In this document: piece by piece, positions 3,655-59,757 of the stretch
Layout of the letters: every line of letters starts with the position of its first letter
How positions within the stretch are numbered: the stretch's first letter is position 1
NCBI GenBank assembly: GCA_045592905.1
Contig: JAZNVR010000023.1
Span: 12,986 to 76,985 of the forward strand
Reading direction: 5' to 3'
DNA length: 64,000 nucleotides
Source of the DNA: Candidatus Enterousia sp.
GTDB lineage: Bacteria > Pseudomonadota > Alphaproteobacteria > Rs-D84
Notes under the pieces: generated by a model
Databases searched by the model: none
The model's input: only the letters and a program-made list of their open reading frames with translations
Told to the model about the DNA's origin: nothing
Translations under genes and position numbers: made by a program

Positions 3655-3935
3655 TATTATGTATACTTTACGATATAAAAATTAAAAATTTTTATATTCG
3701 TATGCACATCAATTCAAACATCGCTGACGCTCGTTTTCATTGGTGCACCTGTATACATAATATATGTGTATACTTTATGGTATAAAAATTAAAATATTTT
3801 TATATTCGCATGCACAACAATTCAAACATCGCTGACGCTCGTTTTCATTGTATGTAATATTCGTTATATCGCTTTGGTTTTTGGTTATGCATTGCAAACG
3901 GTTGATTAATTGCTTTCCCTTGCGTGTATACCGCC
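3655..3935. repeat. right copy of the direct repeat, with unit A duplicated (A, degenerate A', B)
   Basis: 3655-3763 equals 1676-1784. 3764-3850 is a diverged second A unit. 3857-3935 is approximately 1781-1858. Confidence 0.85.
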
Positions 3936-15802: not shown

Positions 15803-15830
15803 TTGAAAAAGATGTAATTTTTGATAGAAT
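15803..15830 (+). promoter_or_regulatory. sigma70-type promoter for RNA leader copy 1
   Basis: TTGAAA, a 16-nt spacer, then TGaTAGAAT (extended -10). Confidence 0.55.
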
Positions 15831-15836
15831 ATAATT

Positions 15837-16048
15837 TGAACTGACAGGGATGTCGGTTCGGGCCTTAGAAAAGCCCAACAGTTTCGGTGCGAATGCATCG
15901 TAATCCGATTAAAATCGGTGTCTTTGCACCGTTATTTTTACCCCCGATAATGGTCGGGGTGCCGTTGTAATATATTGAACGCAACGGGGTCACTAAACTG
16001 TTGATTTTTCTAACACCCCGACCGTCATTTCTGTGGCGGTTTTTGTTT
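15837..16048 (+). promoter_or_regulatory. structured RNA leader, copy 1 of a two-copy unclassified motif ending in an intrinsic terminator
   Basis: It shares sequence blocks and four compensated helices with 30570-30818. The terminator is ACCGUCA/UGGCGGU plus a U-run at 16021-16048. Confidence 0.6.
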
Positions 16049-16121
16049 AGGGGTAATATTTGTTTTCAACCACCACCTTAAAGTATGAAAATGTGTTACC
16101 CCACCAATTTGTGGGGGGTAT

Positions 16122-16991
16122 ATGAGAAAGATAATTTGTCTGTGTCTGATGATATTATGTGTTTCTGCACATGCACGTGTGTTGCATGTGGGTGATAATA
16201 CAATAAAACTGTCACAAACAAAAACAACAGACCCCGCCCTGCACGTGCGGGTTGATAATGAAGTATGGTATGGGATGATGTGCACGAATTTCAAGCAAGA
16301 TTCATTACACATAAAATATAATGACACGGTATACGATGTTACCAACCCCTTTGCCGACACAACAAACTATACATATGACACAGACGGCCGATTAATTGGT
16401 GCAAATGAAAATATTTATTTGGAAAACATTGATAAAGCATGGATAGATACTGGAATTTTGCCATCTTTGAATTTATTAACACATATCAGTGTTTATGCAT
16501 TAAACTATACAGGAAACGTCATTTATGGCACAGGAGGGCCAAAAGATGCCTCCGTCATGGACGTTGAAACATACCGTTTATTTAACTACAACGGCCAAAT
16601 ATATTTTGATATAAATGGAATAACTAATAGACTTGTTGGAGAATCTTTAAGTTTTGATAAAAATATTAAATATAATTTTGAACTTGGTAATCGTTATGTC
16701 AAAGATTTAAATTCTGGTTATATCATAGAAAGAACACCGCTAAAAACACTAACATTTATTCCAAACGATTCTCATAAGCTACGTTTGTTTGATAGATATA
16801 TTGGAATAATTAGAATATTTTACACAAAAATCTGGGATAATGATACGCTTGTTCGGCATTTTGTGCCGGTGCCGTGTGGGTTAAAAATTGGGGATTTTGT
16901 TGTGCCAAGTAACGGTATGTGGGATATTGTGGAACAAAAATTCTATGGCAATATGGGAACTGGCGATTTTATTTATGGCGTGGATGAGTAG
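16122..16991 (+). CDS. secreted hypothetical protein (possible lectin/tail-fibre-like C-terminus)
   Basis: Signal peptide MRKIICLCLMILCVSAHA. From memory, the C-terminal LVRHFVPVPCG...GMWDIVEQKFYGNMGTGDF resembles a motif of an uncharacterised family common in gut bacteria and phages. This is unverified. Confidence 0.7.
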   Translation: MRKIICLCLMILCVSAHARVLHVGDNTIKLSQTKTTDPALHVRVDNEVWYGMMCTNFKQDSLHIKYNDTVYDVTNPFADTTNYTYDTDGRLIGANENIYLENIDKAWIDTGILPSLNLLTHISVYALNYTGNVIYGTGGPKDASVMDVETYRLFNYNGQIYFDINGITNRLVGESLSFDKNIKYNFELGNRYVKDLNSGYIIERTPLKTLTFIPNDSHKLRLFDRYIGIIRIFYTKIWDNDTLVRHFVPVPCGLKIGDFVVPSNGMWDIVEQKFYGNMGTGDFIYGVDE

Positions 16992-28149: not shown

Positions 28150-30432
28150 ATGACAAACGAGAGAGAAACTTTTTTTCAGCCCTTGACAATGGTGGATTAT
28201 GATATCGCAGGAAATTCGTTTCGTGCGTATTATGATGTAGATAAAAAACTTGTCTTTGTGATTGATTTCTTGACCAGTGATATAAAACCAAATGTTTTGT
28301 TGGTAATAAATCCTGTTGGGGATCGTAAATGGGATGATATTCTGGAAAATGATTATGGCGTTGATTTAGAAACTGTTCGCCCAAAGAAAGATAATAAATA
28401 TCAGAAATTAGATATTGAATATGCTGGTTTGTCTGAATATGATGAACTGATTGCTGCATATGAATCTGGTAATAATTTGAATCAAAAACTGGATGCGTTG
28501 ACAGAATTTCGCCATGTTGCTGCAACACGTGCCGCAATTGAACGTTTGGGGGCTGCTGAATTAACGGTTAAACGCAGTCGTGAAACAATTGATAAAACAG
28601 ACGTTAAAATACAAGATTTGCAAGAAAAATTGAAAAAATTACGCTTAAAGTTGTCTGATGCAAGACAATCTATTGGTAAAGAACCAACCAAGCAGTCTGC
28701 ATCCAAAATATTGCGTATTGAATCACAAATAGATTCTACAAATGATAAGATAAAACGTGCAAAAAAACGCCTGAATAATGCACAAAATCGTTTAAGTGCT
28801 GCAGAAGATGAAATTGAAGTTGCACAGTATATCTTAAATAAATTAAAGGTAAATTTGCCTGCGGAACCTGTGCCGGCTCAAATTGTTGTATCAGAACCTG
28901 CACCTGTTCCTGTGGTCAATGATGATATTATATATGAAGAAACAAAGGCGGATGATATGGATGATGATGTAAAACCATTGTTTGATACAGACCCAAAAAT
29001 TCTTGATGAAGAAATTGCCTTTAAACCAATTAATTTTGGAACAGATTCAACAACAATCGTATCCAGCGGTTCGCAACCTGTAAACAACACGTTTACAGAA
29101 GATGTCAACGATGATACAGATGATGATTCCGAAGAAACTATGCCTGTCGTGTCTGTGCCGATGGGGGGGTATTCTGAAAATACAGAATATGAAGAAGATG
29201 ACGATGAAGATGAACAAAAACAAGAAAATATTGTTCAGCCATTGTCTTTTACACCACCGGTCAGTTTTGAACCTGTTGCAGAAGAATCTGACACAGAAAT
29301 AGAAAACGAAGAAAATACAACAAAACCTATGTTGGATGGGTTTACACCAATTCCATTTGGTTCTGAACATGAAGAATTAAACGTTTGGGAAGAACCTGTG
29401 ATTGATATGCCGACTGTTTATCCGATGAACGAAAATGCATCTGAAAAACAAGAAAGTACAGAACAAAATGTAATGCCTGTGCCAGAATATGTTTCGGAAC
29501 CAGTTGTTGCTGATACAAATGATGTTGCTGTTGCACCTGTTACATCCAGTTTGCGTCCTGTGTCCCCTATTTCTGGTGGTGCAGATGTGGCACCTGTGGT
29601 GGCTGTTGCCCCGGTTGCAGGGGGAAATAAAAAACCAACAATGCTGTATTATGTTTTATTGATTGTTTTGATTGTTTTGTCTGTGTTTACATTGTGGGTT
29701 TATCAGAATTCTGCAAATGATGTTATGCCTGAACTTGGGGTAAAGACAGAAACAGCCGCTGTTGTTTCAGAATCAGAAGATGTTGTAACTGATGTAGCCC
29801 CTGTGGCGGTGCCAGACGTTGTTGACGAAGAAGTTGTTGTTACAGAAGATATTGCAGAAGAAGTTGTCCCAGAAACAACAGATGTGGTTGTGCCAGACGT
29901 TGAGCCAACACCAGTAGAAGTTACAGAGCCTGTTGTTGAAACTGTTGTTGCGGATGCAACAATTGTTCCCGTTACACAGGAAAAAACAGAAAATACAGAT
30001 ACTGATGTTGCCGAACAGGCGGACGTGATAAGCCCGTTTATAAATTTATCTGCTGATACAATATTTAGAAATGTGCCAGATGCACCAGAACCAGAACCAA
30101 CTAAAATTCCAACCGAAGAAGAAATATTGGCATCAAAACCTGCCTATGGTGTTTCGCAGAATGAGAATATGTTTGTTGCAGCACCAGAATATGAAACAGA
30201 TGTTGATATTGTTGCACCTGTTGAAGAAGTGTCAGCACCGGTTGTTGAAATCGCAGAACCAACAGTTGTCACAGAATATGCAGAAGAAGAATATATGGAA
30301 GAAGAAACCTGTTCTGATGGCAATCCACCTGATATGTATGGGTGCTGTACTGGTGAAGATTTTGTCTTGTTGCCAGATGGCGAACGTGCGTGCTGTGCAG
30401 AAAGTACAGGCGAATGCTTCCCGCCAATGTAA
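28150..30432 (+). CDS. 760-aa acidic bitopic protein: cytoplasmic coiled-coil, one TM, V/E/P/T-rich exterior, C-terminal 7-Cys knot
   Basis: TM KKPTMLYYVLLIVLIVLSVFTLWVY sits mid-protein, with long D/E-rich low-complexity regions. The end is ETCSDGNPPDMYGCCTGEDFVLLPDGERACCAESTGECFPPM. Confidence 0.75.
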   Translation: MTNERETFFQPLTMVDYDIAGNSFRAYYDVDKKLVFVIDFLTSDIKPNVLLVINPVGDRKWDDILENDYGVDLETVRPKKDNKYQKLDIEYAGLSEYDELIAAYESGNNLNQKLDALTEFRHVAATRAAIERLGAAELTVKRSRETIDKTDVKIQDLQEKLKKLRLKLSDARQSIGKEPTKQSASKILRIESQIDSTNDKIKRAKKRLNNAQNRLSAAEDEIEVAQYILNKLKVNLPAEPVPAQIVVSEPAPVPVVNDDIIYEETKADDMDDDVKPLFDTDPKILDEEIAFKPINFGTDSTTIVSSGSQPVNNTFTEDVNDDTDDDSEETMPVVSVPMGGYSENTEYEEDDDEDEQKQENIVQPLSFTPPVSFEPVAEESDTEIENEENTTKPMLDGFTPIPFGSEHEELNVWEEPVIDMPTVYPMNENASEKQESTEQNVMPVPEYVSEPVVADTNDVAVAPVTSSLRPVSPISGGADVAPVVAVAPVAGGNKKPTMLYYVLLIVLIVLSVFTLWVYQNSANDVMPELGVKTETAAVVSESEDVVTDVAPVAVPDVVDEEVVVTEDIAEEVVPETTDVVVPDVEPTPVEVTEPVVETVVADATIVPVTQEKTENTDTDVAEQADVISPFINLSADTIFRNVPDAPEPEPTKIPTEEEILASKPAYGVSQNENMFVAAPEYETDVDIVAPVEEVSAPVVEIAEPTVVTEYAEEEYMEEETCSDGNPPDMYGCCTGEDFVLLPDGERACCAESTGECFPPM

Positions 30433-30458
30433 ATAAATTAAATATAATAATTCATCTA

Positions 30459-30480
30459 CAAGCGGTGCCAGCACCGCTTG
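30459..30480 (+). terminator. hairpin after the 760-aa gene (weak U-tract)
   Basis: CAAGCGGTGC-CA-GCACCGCTTG, then TATTTAT. Confidence 0.5.
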
Positions 30481-30535
30481 TATTTATATCGTTCTATTTA
30501 ATTTCTTTGCTAAATTGCAGGCAGTGTTTTTTTAT

Positions 30536-30564
30536 TTGTATATGAATAAAAAATCTGGTATAAT
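30536..30564 (+). promoter_or_regulatory. sigma70-type promoter for RNA leader copy 2
   Basis: TTGTAT, a 17-nt spacer, then TGgTATAAT (extended -10). Confidence 0.55.
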
Positions 30565-30569
30565 AATCT

Positions 30570-30818
30570 TGAAATCATAGGGATATGGTTTCGGGGACTT
30601 AAGAAATCCCGTATTTGGCGATACAGTGATGTATTGATATCCGACCAAGGTAAAATATTTGGCGCGGATGCGCTTTTTATTTTATCAAAAATCCCGATAA
30701 TTGTTGTCGGGGTGCCTGTGGCTATAACACAGTGCTGTGCACAAAGGCCACAGGGGTCATTCCAAATATGATTTTCTTAACACCCCGACCGTCATATTCT
30801 ATGACGGTTTTTGTTTTT
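30570..30818 (+). promoter_or_regulatory. structured RNA leader, copy 2 of the unclassified motif, ending in an intrinsic terminator
   Basis: It has the same blocks and helices as 15837-16048. The terminator is ACCGUCAU-AUUCU-AUGACGGU plus a U-run (30788-30818), and GGGG-N6-AUG follows. Confidence 0.6.
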
Positions 30819-30829
30819 CGGGGAAAACG

Positions 30830-31120
30830 ATGAAACGAATATTGTTTTTTGTATTTATGTTATTGCCAATATCTGCCACAGCATCAGATGTTGTGGCATT
30901 GCAGACGCAAATTGATTTATTGCGTAATGAAATAACACAACTGGATAAAGATTTAATGGAATGTAAACAGGGGTTAAAGGGGTGGACCGCTGCGACCGCA
31001 TTGGGCGCGGTTGGAACTGTGGCAACTGGGGTTGGTGCAACGATTCAAGGGGTCAGTTTGCATAAATTAAAAAAAGAACAACAACAAGAAAAACAAAAAT
31101 CAACCGAAACGGAAAAATAA
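30830..31120 (+). CDS. small secreted coiled-coil / glycine-zipper protein (paralogue 1)
   Basis: The ATG at 30830 follows GGGGAAAACG. Signal peptide MKRILFFVFMLLPISATA, a coiled-coil with a single Cys, then AATALGAVGTVATGVGATIQG. The 30737 start would lie inside the RNA leader. Confidence 0.7.
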   Translation: MKRILFFVFMLLPISATASDVVALQTQIDLLRNEITQLDKDLMECKQGLKGWTAATALGAVGTVATGVGATIQGVSLHKLKKEQQQEKQKSTETEK

Positions 31121-31509
31121 TGATTAGATATTTATTTGTTATTGGTTTGTTTATTTGTTTCGGCACAACAGTGTTTGCCAATGATATGTATATCCAAATA
31201 CTGAATGCACAGATTGAACAGTTGACTGCGGAACGCGATGCAAAACGCATGGAATTGGACGAGTGTCAAGATAAACAAAAAAAGATGAAGGTTGCAGGTT
31301 CTGTGACAATGGCAACAGCCGGTGTTGGTTTGGGGGTAAATATTGCATTGGCATCAAAACTTGCCAGCGAGAAATCTGGTGGTCCTTTGGCCAGTGGTGC
31401 CGGAATGCCACGGGATACAAGGTCACAAGAACAAAAGAATTGTGATAGTTGTCAAATGTTCAAAAAAAGGAATATATCACCGATGCCCGGTGAATGTAGT
31501 GGTTGTTGA
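31120..31509 (+). CDS. small secreted coiled-coil / glycine-zipper protein (paralogue 2) with Cys-rich tail
   Basis: Its start overlaps the upstream stop (TAATG). The layout is the same (LDECQD...AGSVTMATAGVGLGVNIALA), plus the C-terminal CDSC...GECSGC. Confidence 0.7.
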   Translation: MIRYLFVIGLFICFGTTVFANDMYIQILNAQIEQLTAERDAKRMELDECQDKQKKMKVAGSVTMATAGVGLGVNIALASKLASEKSGGPLASGAGMPRDTRSQEQKNCDSCQMFKKRNISPMPGECSGC

Positions 31510-31530
31510 TATATAAAAAAAGGAGAAAAA

Positions 31531-32193
31531 ATGAAAAAAATATCTGTTATATCGTTGGCTGCGTTGATTGGCGGGACGTGTGTTGCGTCTGCAGCAACAT
31601 TAAAAGAAACTTGCTTGGCAAATCCAGAATATTTTGTCTGGGTTGAAAAGACGTCTGATTGTGCAACTGTGCATCCATGTGAGGATCCGTCTGATCCGCA
31701 TTACGCATTTTATTGCAATACTGCATTCAAAGATATTCAGGTGGCAAGTGTTCGTGAAGCACAAGAATTGGCAAATTTGTTCGTGTCAAAACGTATGGGG
31801 GTAACGTGTTCTTTCTTGGCAGCACAAGACGCGAAGTTGGTTGGTCAAGATTATGTTGGTTGCAAAACATCAGATGGTGGATTTATAGAATTCGAATTTG
31901 ATGATTATTCTGAACATGGATCTTCTACGGCTGATTTTTCATATGAATTGGGTAAATGTATCGCGTATGGCGGGAAACCAACATTGGCTGATATTGCCAG
32001 TTCACAAGATGTGTTGGGTGTTCCGACAGAAGCGGGTTTAGAAGGTGGTATAGCTGTAAAACAAGAAAATTTAATTGGTGGTTCACGTAAGACAATTGAA
32101 TGCTATAATGTTAGTGAATCGCAGTGTAAAGAAATGTATTCTGATCGTGCGACTTACAACCCGACAAATAAATTGTGTACATTACATAGATAA
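31531..32193 (+). CDS. secreted Cys-rich hypothetical protein
   Basis: RBS AAAGGAGAAAAA-ATG and signal peptide ...CVASAA. 220 aa with about a dozen Cys. Confidence 0.75.
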   Translation: MKKISVISLAALIGGTCVASAATLKETCLANPEYFVWVEKTSDCATVHPCEDPSDPHYAFYCNTAFKDIQVASVREAQELANLFVSKRMGVTCSFLAAQDAKLVGQDYVGCKTSDGGFIEFEFDDYSEHGSSTADFSYELGKCIAYGGKPTLADIASSQDVLGVPTEAGLEGGIAVKQENLIGGSRKTIECYNVSESQCKEMYSDRATYNPTNKLCTLHR

Positions 32194-44425: not shown

Positions 44426-44429
44426 ATTG

Positions 44430-44745
44430 CAAGACAGGCATATAAGCCGGGTTCTGTTCTGCCACAAATCAGTTTTATACCATTTCGTGGTAGTGGACAT
44501 GATTAATCTGCATATTGCATTGCTGCATATGTCAAGCCTTCTACCCGCCCCCAATGTGGGACACATATGCGGAGGCCTATTTGAAGTTGCTGCACGCAGA
44601 GATTGCCCGTTTCACCCGAATTTAATCGTTTCGTCACTGTTGCTCTAATCGTCAGGTCGCCCTGCCCGGTATATTAGCCGGTGCGTTGTCCCATGCAGCC
44701 CGGACTTTCCTCTGATATTAATCAGCCATGCCCAGCCTGTCTTGT
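44430..44745 (-). ncRNA. rnpB: RNase P RNA, bacterial type A
   Basis: The reverse strand contains the universal GAGGAAAGUCCGGGCU (P4 5' side) and ACAGAACCCGGCUUAU (P4 3' side). P1 pairs AGACAGGC with GCCUGUCU at the two ends. Confidence 0.9.
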
Positions 44746-59350: not shown

Positions 59351-59437
59351 GGGCGTATGGCGGAATTGGTAGACGCGCTAGTTTCAGGTACTAGTGGTAG
59401 CAATACCTTGGAAGTTCGAGTCTTCTTACGCCCACCA
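59351..59437 (+). tRNA. tRNA-Leu (anticodon CAG)
   Basis: Acceptor GGGCGUA/UACGCCC, anticodon arm CUAGU-UUCAGGU-ACUAG, long variable arm, T-loop UUCGAGU, encoded CCA. Confidence 0.9.
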
Positions 59438-59446
59438 TTGTATTAT

Positions 59447-59522
59447 GGGGTTGTAGCTCAGTTGATAGAGCGCTACGTTCGCATCGTAGAGGTCGTGGGT
59501 TTGAGTCCCATCAGCTCCACCA
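59447..59522 (+). tRNA. tRNA-Ala (anticodon CGC)
   Basis: G3:U70 in the acceptor stem, anticodon arm CUACG-UUCGCAU-CGUAG, encoded CCA. The D-loop is AGUUGAUA and the T-loop UUUGAGU (A19/U56). Confidence 0.85.
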
Positions 59523-59670
59523 ACATTATATGCTAATTATTTTTGTTTTATACGTTATTGTATATAGTAGTAATTCCTTGATAGATTTAAGTAAATATTA
59601 ATTAATGTAATATTTTTTGCTTGCATATGTTAAATCATATTGATAATATCTAGGCGTTATTACACACGTC

Positions 59671-59757
59671 GGGGATATGGCGGAATGGTAGACGCTGAGG
59701 ACTTAAAATCCTTTGATCATTGCGATCGTGTGGGTTCAAGTCCCACTATCCCCACCA
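59671..59757 (+). tRNA. tRNA-Leu (anticodon UAA)
   Basis: Acceptor GGGGAUA/UAUCCCC, anticodon loop CUUAAAA, long variable arm, T-loop UUCAAGU, encoded CCA. Confidence 0.9.

Follow-up and report, generated by a model that had tools for sequence, protein, structure and literature searches.

A new family of pseudoknotted leader RNAs with a predicted terminator-linked switch upstream of secreted- and surface-protein genes in Candidatus Enterousia

Candidatus Enterousia comprises uncultured gut bacteria of the order Rs-D84. Their genomes, of less than about 1 Mb, have neither the tricarboxylic acid cycle nor respiration and code for numerous hypothetical membrane proteins and unexplained surface proteins (PMC12306168). 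In a 64,000-nucleotide stretch of one such genome (hereafter the window; assembly GCA_045592905.1, contig JAZNVR010000023.1, positions 12,986 to 76,985), two leader RNAs lie directly upstream of genes for signal-peptide proteins. An initial annotation, made by reading the letters, had proposed that the two are homologous and act as switches of the riboswitch or attenuator type, and this proposal was followed up computationally. The segments 15837-16048 and 30570-30818 belong to a single RNA family, of which they are copies 1 and 2. Judged from sequence, this is a new family of structured, putatively cis-regulatory leaders with a predicted terminator-linked switch, real and of a known kind. The leaders, their promoters and the genes that follow them are:

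15803-15830 (+): promoter of copy 1, with -35 TTGAAA, a 16-nt spacer and a TG-extended -10 TAGAAT (consensus scan); RNA start about 7 nt downstream, where the family homology begins
15837-16048 (+): copy 1, leader RNA (short form of type A) from predicted start to U-tract; nhmmer, cmsearch 175.7 bits over model positions 1-242
16122-16991 (+): gene downstream of copy 1; 289-aa product without a Pfam match, its N-terminal segment resembling a signal peptide
30556-30564 (+): -10 of the copy 2 promoter, TGgTATAAT (read by eye), with a weak -35, TTGTAT, at 30536-30541 that the consensus scan missed
30570-30818 (+): copy 2, leader RNA (long form of type A); cmsearch 207.1 bits
30820-31120 (+): Shine-Dalgarno (SD) sequence GGGG (30820-30823) and gene (ATG 30830) downstream of copy 2, for a 96-aa signal-peptide protein, the first of three small secreted-protein genes

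Open reading frames (ORFs) were called mechanically, and a simple rule based on hydrophobic runs served to assign signal peptides. The two copies align end to end with a mean column identity of 73%. A profile built from the pair found only these two sites in the window (nhmmer, E 9e-58 and 1e-75), and a covariance model built from the family alignment and run with filters off scored them at 176 and 207 bits on the plus strand, against about 21 bits on the minus strand, with nothing else in the window below E 0.1 (covariance-model E-values are rough, having been obtained with a quick calibration). Both folding energies fell well under those of shuffled controls (z -6.4 for copy 1 and -8.5 for copy 2), and a consensus scan placed terminator-like hairpins, each followed by a U-run, at 16020-16041 and 30787-30809. 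The homology proposed by the initial annotation was thereby borne out, and all helix coordinates and motifs that it gave agree with the sequence. Its sigma70-type promoters about 7 nt before the element were recovered by the scan for copy 1 and, for copy 2, by eye for the -10, the -35 being weak.

The annotation had also considered the element novel, having matched it by eye to none of several known classes. At gathering scores, neither window copy matched any family of Rfam 15, including TPP, T-box, GEMM, ZTP, cobalamin, purine, guanidine, glmS and ydaO, and at E<=10 the copies gave only scattered matches, 41-114 bits under the gathering scores and none common to both. Seventeen other members of the family yielded tRNAs only at gathering score. 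Full-text literature searches on the conserved strings and on Enterousia RNA elements returned no description. The family pattern had zero matches in viral contigs, on which basis a phage origin of the leader was dropped. With gathering scores, a scan of the whole window (cmscan) reported only RNase P RNA class A at 44426-44744 (-), with 186.7 bits, and three tRNAs, tRNA-Leu(CAG), tRNA-Ala(CGC) and tRNA-Leu(UAA), within 59351-59757 (+).

Homologues were collected with two patterns. Pattern 1, three conserved blocks separated by gaps, was scanned against a collection of species-representative genomes and returned 43 loci, 39 of which carried full-length homologues (nhmmer), nearly all in metagenome-assembled genomes named Candidatus Enterousia or uncultured Alphaproteobacteria from rumen, colon or faeces. 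Pattern 2, which left three positions unspecified (NNN) in either strand of the proposed long-range pairing, returned 74 metagenome loci; the contigs that carry them include some with a human gut label and some 0.3-0.9 Mb long. Seventeen pattern-scan loci without an nhmmer match to the family were taken as chance (L008, L020, L026, L041, L044, L053, L060, L061, L062, L066, L071, L076, L083, L087, L104, L111 and L114). Pattern scans, nhmmer and cmsearch together gave 103 homologues, 92 of them unique, with leader RNAs of about 170-290 nt and 2-5 copies in several genomes. Four shorter members (170-205 nt; 27-33 bits in cmsearch with the type A model) form a distant subfamily, type B:

L006:662-866 (+)
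L037:4594-4765 (+)
L088:4320-4490 (-)
L002:7747-7928 (+)

In every member a promoter precedes the leader by about 7 nt and a terminator closes its 3' end. Wherever the flank sufficed, a same-strand ORF starts at about -12 to +220 nt, the exception being L049, in which an inserted inverted repeat displaces the gene to about +470; the usual distance from terminator to ORF is 10-25 nt, and the ORF start is sometimes inside the U-tract. Multiple copies per genome, in front of variable surface-protein genes and some DNA methylase genes, could also mark a DNA-level repeat, namely a miniature inverted-repeat transposable element (MITE) or a conserved cassette for recombination in phase or antigenic variation of the surface-protein genes, comparable to the 5' regions conserved among Mycoplasma vsp/vpma genes. 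We consider this highly improbable. The members sit in 5'-leader contexts without terminal inverted repeats, and their orientation relative to the downstream gene is constant. Upstream flanks are non-homologous except for the -35 and -10 elements, and the homology sets in at the predicted transcription start. The element has been kept in place at the orthologous loci of copy 1, L001 and L021, which share the upstream terminator and the downstream gene family. G-U pairs and the 10-fold difference in score between strands show the element to be strand-specific, and the helices are kept by compensatory changes, which argues for selection on RNA rather than on DNA identity.

The structure was derived by RNAalifold on 39 sequences, a scan of all column pairs and an explicit pair count on an 82-sequence alignment. 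Its elements, all on the plus strand, are listed below for copy 1 and then copy 2:

15838-15859 (+), P0: 5' hairpin GAACUGACA/UGUCGGUUC with loop GGGA at 15847-15850; both-side changes in 8/9 pairs; copy 2, 30571-30592
15848-15850 with 15904-15906 (+), PK0: pseudoknot of P0 loop bases G15848, G15849 and A15850 with U15904, C15905 and C15906; covariation; copy 2, 30581-83 with 30640-42
15860-15876 (+), P1: hairpin GGGC/GCCC (15860-63/15873-76); closing pairs C-G, A-U, U-A and U-G; copy 2, 30594-97/30607-10
15866-15872 with 16006-16012 (+), PK1: pseudoknot of P1 loop UAGAAAA with UUUUCUA; double changes in 6/7 pairs; copy 2, 30600-06 with 30773-79
15877-15884 (+), P2: 5' strand AACAGUUU, pairing with AAACUGUU at 15995-16002; several pair types at every pair; copy 2, 30612-18/30762-68
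15885-15900 (+), P3: hairpin CGGUGC/GCAUCG; double changes in 6/7 pairs; copy 2, 30619-25/30630-36
15916-15931 (+), P3b: hairpin CGGUG/CACCG followed by a U-rich run; double changes in 5/5 pairs; absent from type B; copy 2, 30661-74
15942-15959 (+), P4: hairpin of the C2 arm CCCCGAU (15942-15948) with the G2 arm GUCGGGG (15953-15959); -11.4 kcal/mol; mutually exclusive with PK3; copy 2, 30693-700/30704-11
15953-15961 (+), G2: GUCGGGGUG, the strand common to P4 and PK3 (5' strand of PK3); all nine PK3 pairs 100% paired, three with double changes (82 sequences); copy 2, 30706-14
15962-15987 (+), P5: CCGUUG/CAACGG (15962-67/15982-87) with conserved loop UAAUAUAUUGAACG; double changes in 6/8 pairs; copy 2, 30715-22/30747-54
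16014-16022 (+), C3: CACCCCGAC, 3' strand of PK3, whose last three bases, GAC (16020-16022), are the base of the terminator stem; scan, covariation and energies; copy 2, 30781-89
16020-16048 (+), T: terminator stem-loop (16020-16041) followed by the U-tract; scan; -11.6 kcal/mol complete and -6.5 without the three shared bases; copy 2, 30787-30809

Over the whole structure, 94.6% of alignment cells are paired in the 82 sequences, compared with 80.7% in shuffled alignments and about 42% when partners were slid; the covariation score was 0.452 against 0.198 in shuffles, none of 500 shuffles reaching the observed values, and 50 of the 65 pairs changed on both sides. All four helices named by the initial annotation, its P1, P2 (CAACAG/CUGUUG at 15876-81/15998-16003, present in the sequence as read), "P4" (our P5) and terminator, covary family-wide. 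The block UUUUCUA, which it had taken only as conserved, is conserved but is in fact the covarying partner of the P1 loop in PK1 (pair counts at one example pair are AU 40, CG 24 and GC 9). Three pseudoknots are in all supported by covariation, where the annotation had described them incompletely; PK0, pairing GGA of the 5' loop with AAUCC, was added. In one MAFFT alignment (A3), seven short-form sequences lay one column off in P1/PK1, which lowered the P1 counts, and P1 was examined directly instead. Type B lacks P3b, PK0 (both the GGGA loop and its AAUCC partner) and the GGGGUCA block. It retains P0, P1/PK1, P2, P3, P4/PK3, P5, whose loop motif AAUAUAUUGAA is found again there, and the terminator.

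Several pairings were tried and rejected. An outer helix called by RNAalifold, GGG(27-29)/CCC(291-293), is broken in L005, which compensates in the local P1, and an RNAalifold extension of P5 by G-C, G-U and U-G pairs is broken in L022a, which compensates in PK3. An antiterminator pairing of the P5 strands with the terminator arms was dropped on finding copy 2 without the complementarity (by eye).

The 5' hairpin bears on the possibility that the RNA is a stand-alone small RNA acting in trans, or a sponge for a protein such as a CsrA-like one, which lies upstream of surface-protein genes by coincidence. The element is discrete in size, with a promoter and a terminator of its own, and the top of P0, ACAGGGAUGU at 15844-15853 (AUAGGGAUAU in copy 2, 30577-30586), resembles the high-affinity CsrA consensus from systematic evolution of ligands by exponential enrichment; some P3b loops contain GGA as well. 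With CsrA/RsmA-binding RNAs it would share a GGA in a 5' hairpin loop and, in part of the family, a G-rich SD, but it has no array of GGA sites. The GGGA loop, found in most type A members, covaries with its partner: GGA/UCC becomes AGA/UCU in L016 and L043, which lose GGA but keep the pairing (GAGA/UCU), and in L094 the pairing can be read by eye as GGU/ACC with the register shifted by one nt. Type B has no such loop at all. This suggests that the loop pairs with AAUCC rather than serving as a CsrA-type site, and it weakened the sponge reading. Moreover, in most members the start codon follows the U-tract by only about 10-25 nt, which leaves no room for a second promoter, and in L052 no promoter was called between terminator and gene. 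No CsrA gene turned up in a sample of 0.92 Mb local to the elements, a weak point. We regard a small RNA or sponge as very unlikely.

The feature that carries most weight is a strand, G2, that can pair in two ways. The initial annotation had noticed that UCGGGGUG (15954-61) could pair with CCCGA (15943-47) or, alternatively, with CACCCCGA (16014-21), and this proved to be the best-supported feature of the family. The distal pairing, PK3, joins GUCGGGGUG with CACCCCGAC. In the unbiased test at the free NNN positions, 86 of 87 unique sequences were complementary, in nine combinations: GGUG/CACC (40), GGAG/CUCC (18), GGAU/AUCC (8), GAAG/CUUC (7), GGGG/CCUC (5), GGGG/CUCC (5) and, once each, GGCG/CGCC, GGGG/CCCC and GGGU/AUCC, with a single mismatch. 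For the local pairing, P4, nearly every member has a C-run plus G ahead of G2, which was no requirement of the scans, and the P4 loop varies from 3 to about 40 nt. An automated search for P4 partners that allowed G-U was too noisy for clean counts; where base 7 of G2 (GUCGGGGUG) is A, the opposite C2 base is U in 6 of 7 cases.

All three segments change together between the subfamilies. In type A, C2/G2/C3 read CCCGA(C)/GUCGGG/CCCGAC; in type B they read CUCCAAC/GUUGGAG/CUCCAAC in three members and CCCAAC/GUUGGG/CCCAAC in one. C2 is a copy of C3, and this three-way covariation argues that selection maintains the two competing pairings alike. An overlap with the terminator may exist in type B as well, where the AAC of C3 can pair with the GUU at the end of the terminator 3' arm (read from the sequences). 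The terminator itself has the form of an intrinsic one, a G+C-rich hairpin directly followed by a U-tract, and its stem covaries (GC 71/AU 10 at one pair and CG 54/UA 14/UG 13 at another). The leader thus combines a structured 5' domain with a platform of mutually exclusive pairings that includes an intrinsic terminator, as in cis-regulatory attenuators.

Helix energies were computed as means over 84 members, with state sums that exclude loop and tertiary terms. The PK3 duplex came to -16.7 kcal/mol, P4 to -12.5, the full terminator to -12.4 and the terminator without the shared bases to -8.0, so that P4 with the full terminator (about -24.9) and PK3 with the weakened terminator (about -24.7) are nearly isoenergetic. 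The two pairings of G2 are mutually exclusive, and PK3 overlaps the terminator.

On this basis we propose, as our tentatively favoured reading, that the leader acts in cis as a transcription attenuator of the riboswitch type for genes of secreted and surface proteins and of surface-glycan enzymes. A strong promoter would give rise to an RNA of 170-290 nt that folds into P0, P1, P2, P3, the optional P3b and P5, tied together by PK0 and PK1. In the OFF state, G2 would close P4 with C2 (CCCGA), leaving C3 free, and the full terminator would form, yielding a short terminated leader. In the ON state, G2 (GUCGGGGUG) and C3 (CACCCCGAC) would form PK3, which would take three nucleotides from the base of the terminator at a cost to it of about 4.5 kcal/mol, and polymerase would read into the gene. 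We infer the effect on termination, the identity of the ON state and the existence of a ligand from this arrangement; the trigger may be a ligand or factor that binds the compact pseudoknotted core and favours PK3, as in ON-type pseudoknot riboswitches. Further translational control might be added in part of the family by the GGGG SD complementary to C3, and in copy 1 by an upstream ORF and an SD hairpin, both described below.

Several points weigh against this proposal. PK3 and the terminator overlap by just 3 nt, and a stem of 6-7 bp is left in the PK3 state, so that termination might be little affected. PK1, PK3 and the terminator follow one another on one strand and could stack as a fixed rod in which the terminator hairpin is structural, and P4 could be a mere transient guide to co-transcriptional folding. 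The downstream genes are diverse and indicate no metabolite. Within type A, the constancy of GUCGGG, GGGGUCA and CCCGACC is a matter of ascertainment, these blocks having been fixed in the scan patterns (as GTCGGG, GGGGTCA and CCCGACC), and conservation there can be read as constraint only through L022a and type B, in which variation at the fixed blocks is always compensatory.

Taken together, some of these observations would suit a constitutive leader without ligand, in which P4 is a transient placeholder guarding G2 until C3 has been made, the mature fold always contains PK3, and the RNA sets a fixed level of read-through and/or protects the mRNA 5' end through P0. The greater stability of PK3 relative to P4, the onset of P0 only 1-2 nt from the predicted 5' end, the contiguity of PK1, PK3 and the terminator and the lack of a common metabolic theme among the controlled genes are all consistent with it. 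Yet C2 imitates C3, the two changing together between subfamilies, the states are near-isoenergetic as a regulated switch needs, and the terminator is kept exactly at the end of every member, which would be costly if it were never regulated. We judge a constitutive leader unlikely, though not negligibly so.

The placing of a short leader between a strong promoter and a terminator that follows at once also recalls factor-dependent or polymerase-directed antitermination, in which the RNA would be read by a NusG paralogue or a dedicated antiterminator, or would act on polymerase itself like put RNA or the eps-associated RNA (EAR), following the logic of lambda PR'-tR' and Q. The RfaH, UpxY and EAR systems control genes of the surface-protein and glycan class, and the targets here are likewise surface proteins and glycosyltransferase operons; the glycosyltransferase-linked members, in addition, carry a second conserved module after the terminator (see below). 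Like HK022 put RNA, Bacillus EAR and lambda PR'-tR'/Q, the Enterousia leader is a short or structured RNA right after a strong promoter with a terminator downstream, and surface-polysaccharide genes are among the targets. Those systems, however, neither have nor need a competitor hairpin and a pseudoknot on one strand such as the C2/G2/C3 alternative pairing, the Enterousia terminator is joined directly to the structure, always at one position, and no homology was detected, with no match to the eps-associated RNA among the Rfam families if it is in that library. No candidate factor gene was seen adjoining the elements. As tblastn queries, NusG, RfaH, CsrA and Hfq of E. coli gave no match in the 0.92 Mb sample, a result that is uninformative because the sample is local to the elements and misses even the essential NusG. 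Antitermination of this kind appears to us quite unlikely.

The favoured reading, a switch by transcription attenuation, finds its closest parallels among ON-type pseudoknot riboswitches such as fluoride/crcB and ZTP/pfl. These too are 5' leaders with covarying helices and conserved joining regions, in which the 3' strand of a long-range pseudoknot overlaps the 5' side of an intrinsic terminator and competes with it. The Enterousia leader differs from them in having no sequence or model similarity (Rfam cmscan), in its far larger size (170-290 nt), three pseudoknots and dedicated competitor hairpin P4, in an overlap with the terminator of 3 nt only, and in controlling secreted and surface proteins. 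With the terminator, antiterminator and anti-antiterminator attenuators (T-box, trp and pyr leaders) it shares a three-part logic, C2:G2 corresponding to the anti-antiterminator, G2:C3 to a partial antiterminator, and C3 with the 3' arm to the terminator. In contrast to them it has no leader peptide, specifier, T-box sequence or repeated protein-binding motifs, and its antiterminator is a pseudoknot within a large conserved fold; RF00230 gave no match, and the genes downstream encode secreted and surface proteins and glycosyltransferases. Cyclic di-GMP riboswitches (GEMM-I and c-di-GMP-II) likewise occur in many copies per genome before adhesins, pili and other surface or secreted proteins, but without an Rfam match and with another size and fold the likeness is one of regulon type only.

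A leader peptide was considered from the conserved AUG in UAUGAUUUU and was rejected because it has no SD, 1-nt indels in PK1 break the frame, and the conservation tracks base-pairing. After the terminator, copy 1 carries an upstream ORF (uORF) and an SD hairpin, as the initial annotation had described:

16060-16125 (+): uORF of 21 codons (UUG 16060) overlapping the 16122 start as AUGA; SD of the main gene in the hairpin CCCCAC/GUGGGG (16099-16104/16111-16116); lineage-specific

These features proved not to belong to the family at large. The uORF and the hairpin have counterparts only in L001 (about 3695-3769, with a uORF of 24 codons) and are absent from L021 and from the rest of the family. 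The copy 1 and L001 peptides are alike (..YE[ND][VI].P..F[VI].G) despite diverged DNA, and in both a CCCCA(C)/(G)UGGGG hairpin holds the G-rich SD of the main gene, an arrangement that may represent translational coupling specific to the gene lineage of copy 1. The complementarity of a GGGG SD to the CCCC of C3, also pointed out in the annotation, is present and enriched near the leaders but not universal: 42 of 87 members have such an SD within about 35 nt of the terminator, compared with roughly one in ten of the other long ORFs of the window (by eye).

The genes following the leaders across the family encode signal-peptide and Cys-rich proteins without Pfam matches, a Listeria-Bacteroides repeat protein, Chlamydia-PMP-repeat proteins, GT2 and GT1/GT4 glycosyltransferases, a HAD hydrolase and two DNA methylase-like proteins; type B members precede genes for signal-peptide proteins and a GT2-like gene. 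From the sequence annotations, the leader regulon is a coherent set of predicted surface and secretome genes in little-known genome-reduced gut bacteria, and the structural complexity of the RNA is unusual. We consider it somewhat doubtful that the leader is a new riboswitch class or RNA-only sensor that chiefly controls the secretome and surface coat of the Rs-D84 gut alphaproteobacteria, which have reduced genomes and probably depend on a partner. In that case a leader with three pseudoknots, repeated before dozens of genes, would itself sense a single signal and jointly switch on adhesin-like, Cys-rich secreted and surface-glycan genes.

If the proposed switch is correct, a large, complex-folded orphan RNA would join the short list of leaders with three pseudoknots and a fully visible switch, and would offer a first way into how Candidatus Enterousia and the order Rs-D84 regulate their genes. 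Pmp-like repeat proteins, Cys-rich secreted proteins and glycosyltransferases are the genes expected in contact with host or partner cells, so that the trigger of the switch would point to what the hosts of the leader sense. The three-way covarying C2/G2/C3 design would also make the mechanism directly open to compensatory mutation.

In the window, the genes for RlpA, MurJ and BamD stand upstream of copy 1, and those for RpiB, a bactofilin and an M23 peptidase converge from the other side. Around copy 2 (28150-32193, +), a 760-aa highly acidic protein without Pfam match is encoded just upstream of the leader, and the signal-peptide proteins downstream (96, 129 and 220 aa, also without Pfam matches) possibly form one operon under it. 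Within the leader, P3b (15916-15931; 30661-30674) resembles a terminator in its own right: a U-run follows its G+C stem and, in long forms, can pair with an upstream A-run; P3b could be an early stop site.

Conserved sequence was also observed beyond the terminator in two groups of members. Those preceding genes for PMP-repeat (autotransporter-like) proteins (L052, L055, L057, L068, L073, L079, L085, L093, L113 and L116) have a spacer of about 75-115 nt after the terminator that is conserved among them; in L052 the scan called no consensus promoter within this spacer. Glycosyltransferase-linked members (L058, L065, L081, L115, L101, L112 and L074, and also L049:2583-2670) have a second module in the roughly 100 nt after the terminator, which consists of GGGUGG(A/G)UG, a variable hairpin and then CUGUCGGUUGUUUGAAC(N)CCACCC and has no Rfam match at gathering score. 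Its stem GGGUGG/CCACCC is replaced by GGGCGGGC/GCCCGCCC in L049. In the same locus, a 42-nt inverted repeat (L049:2320-2581; 86% complementary, with 178 nt between the arms) lies between the terminator on one side and the second module and GT2 gene on the other, and looks like a MITE or an invertible segment.

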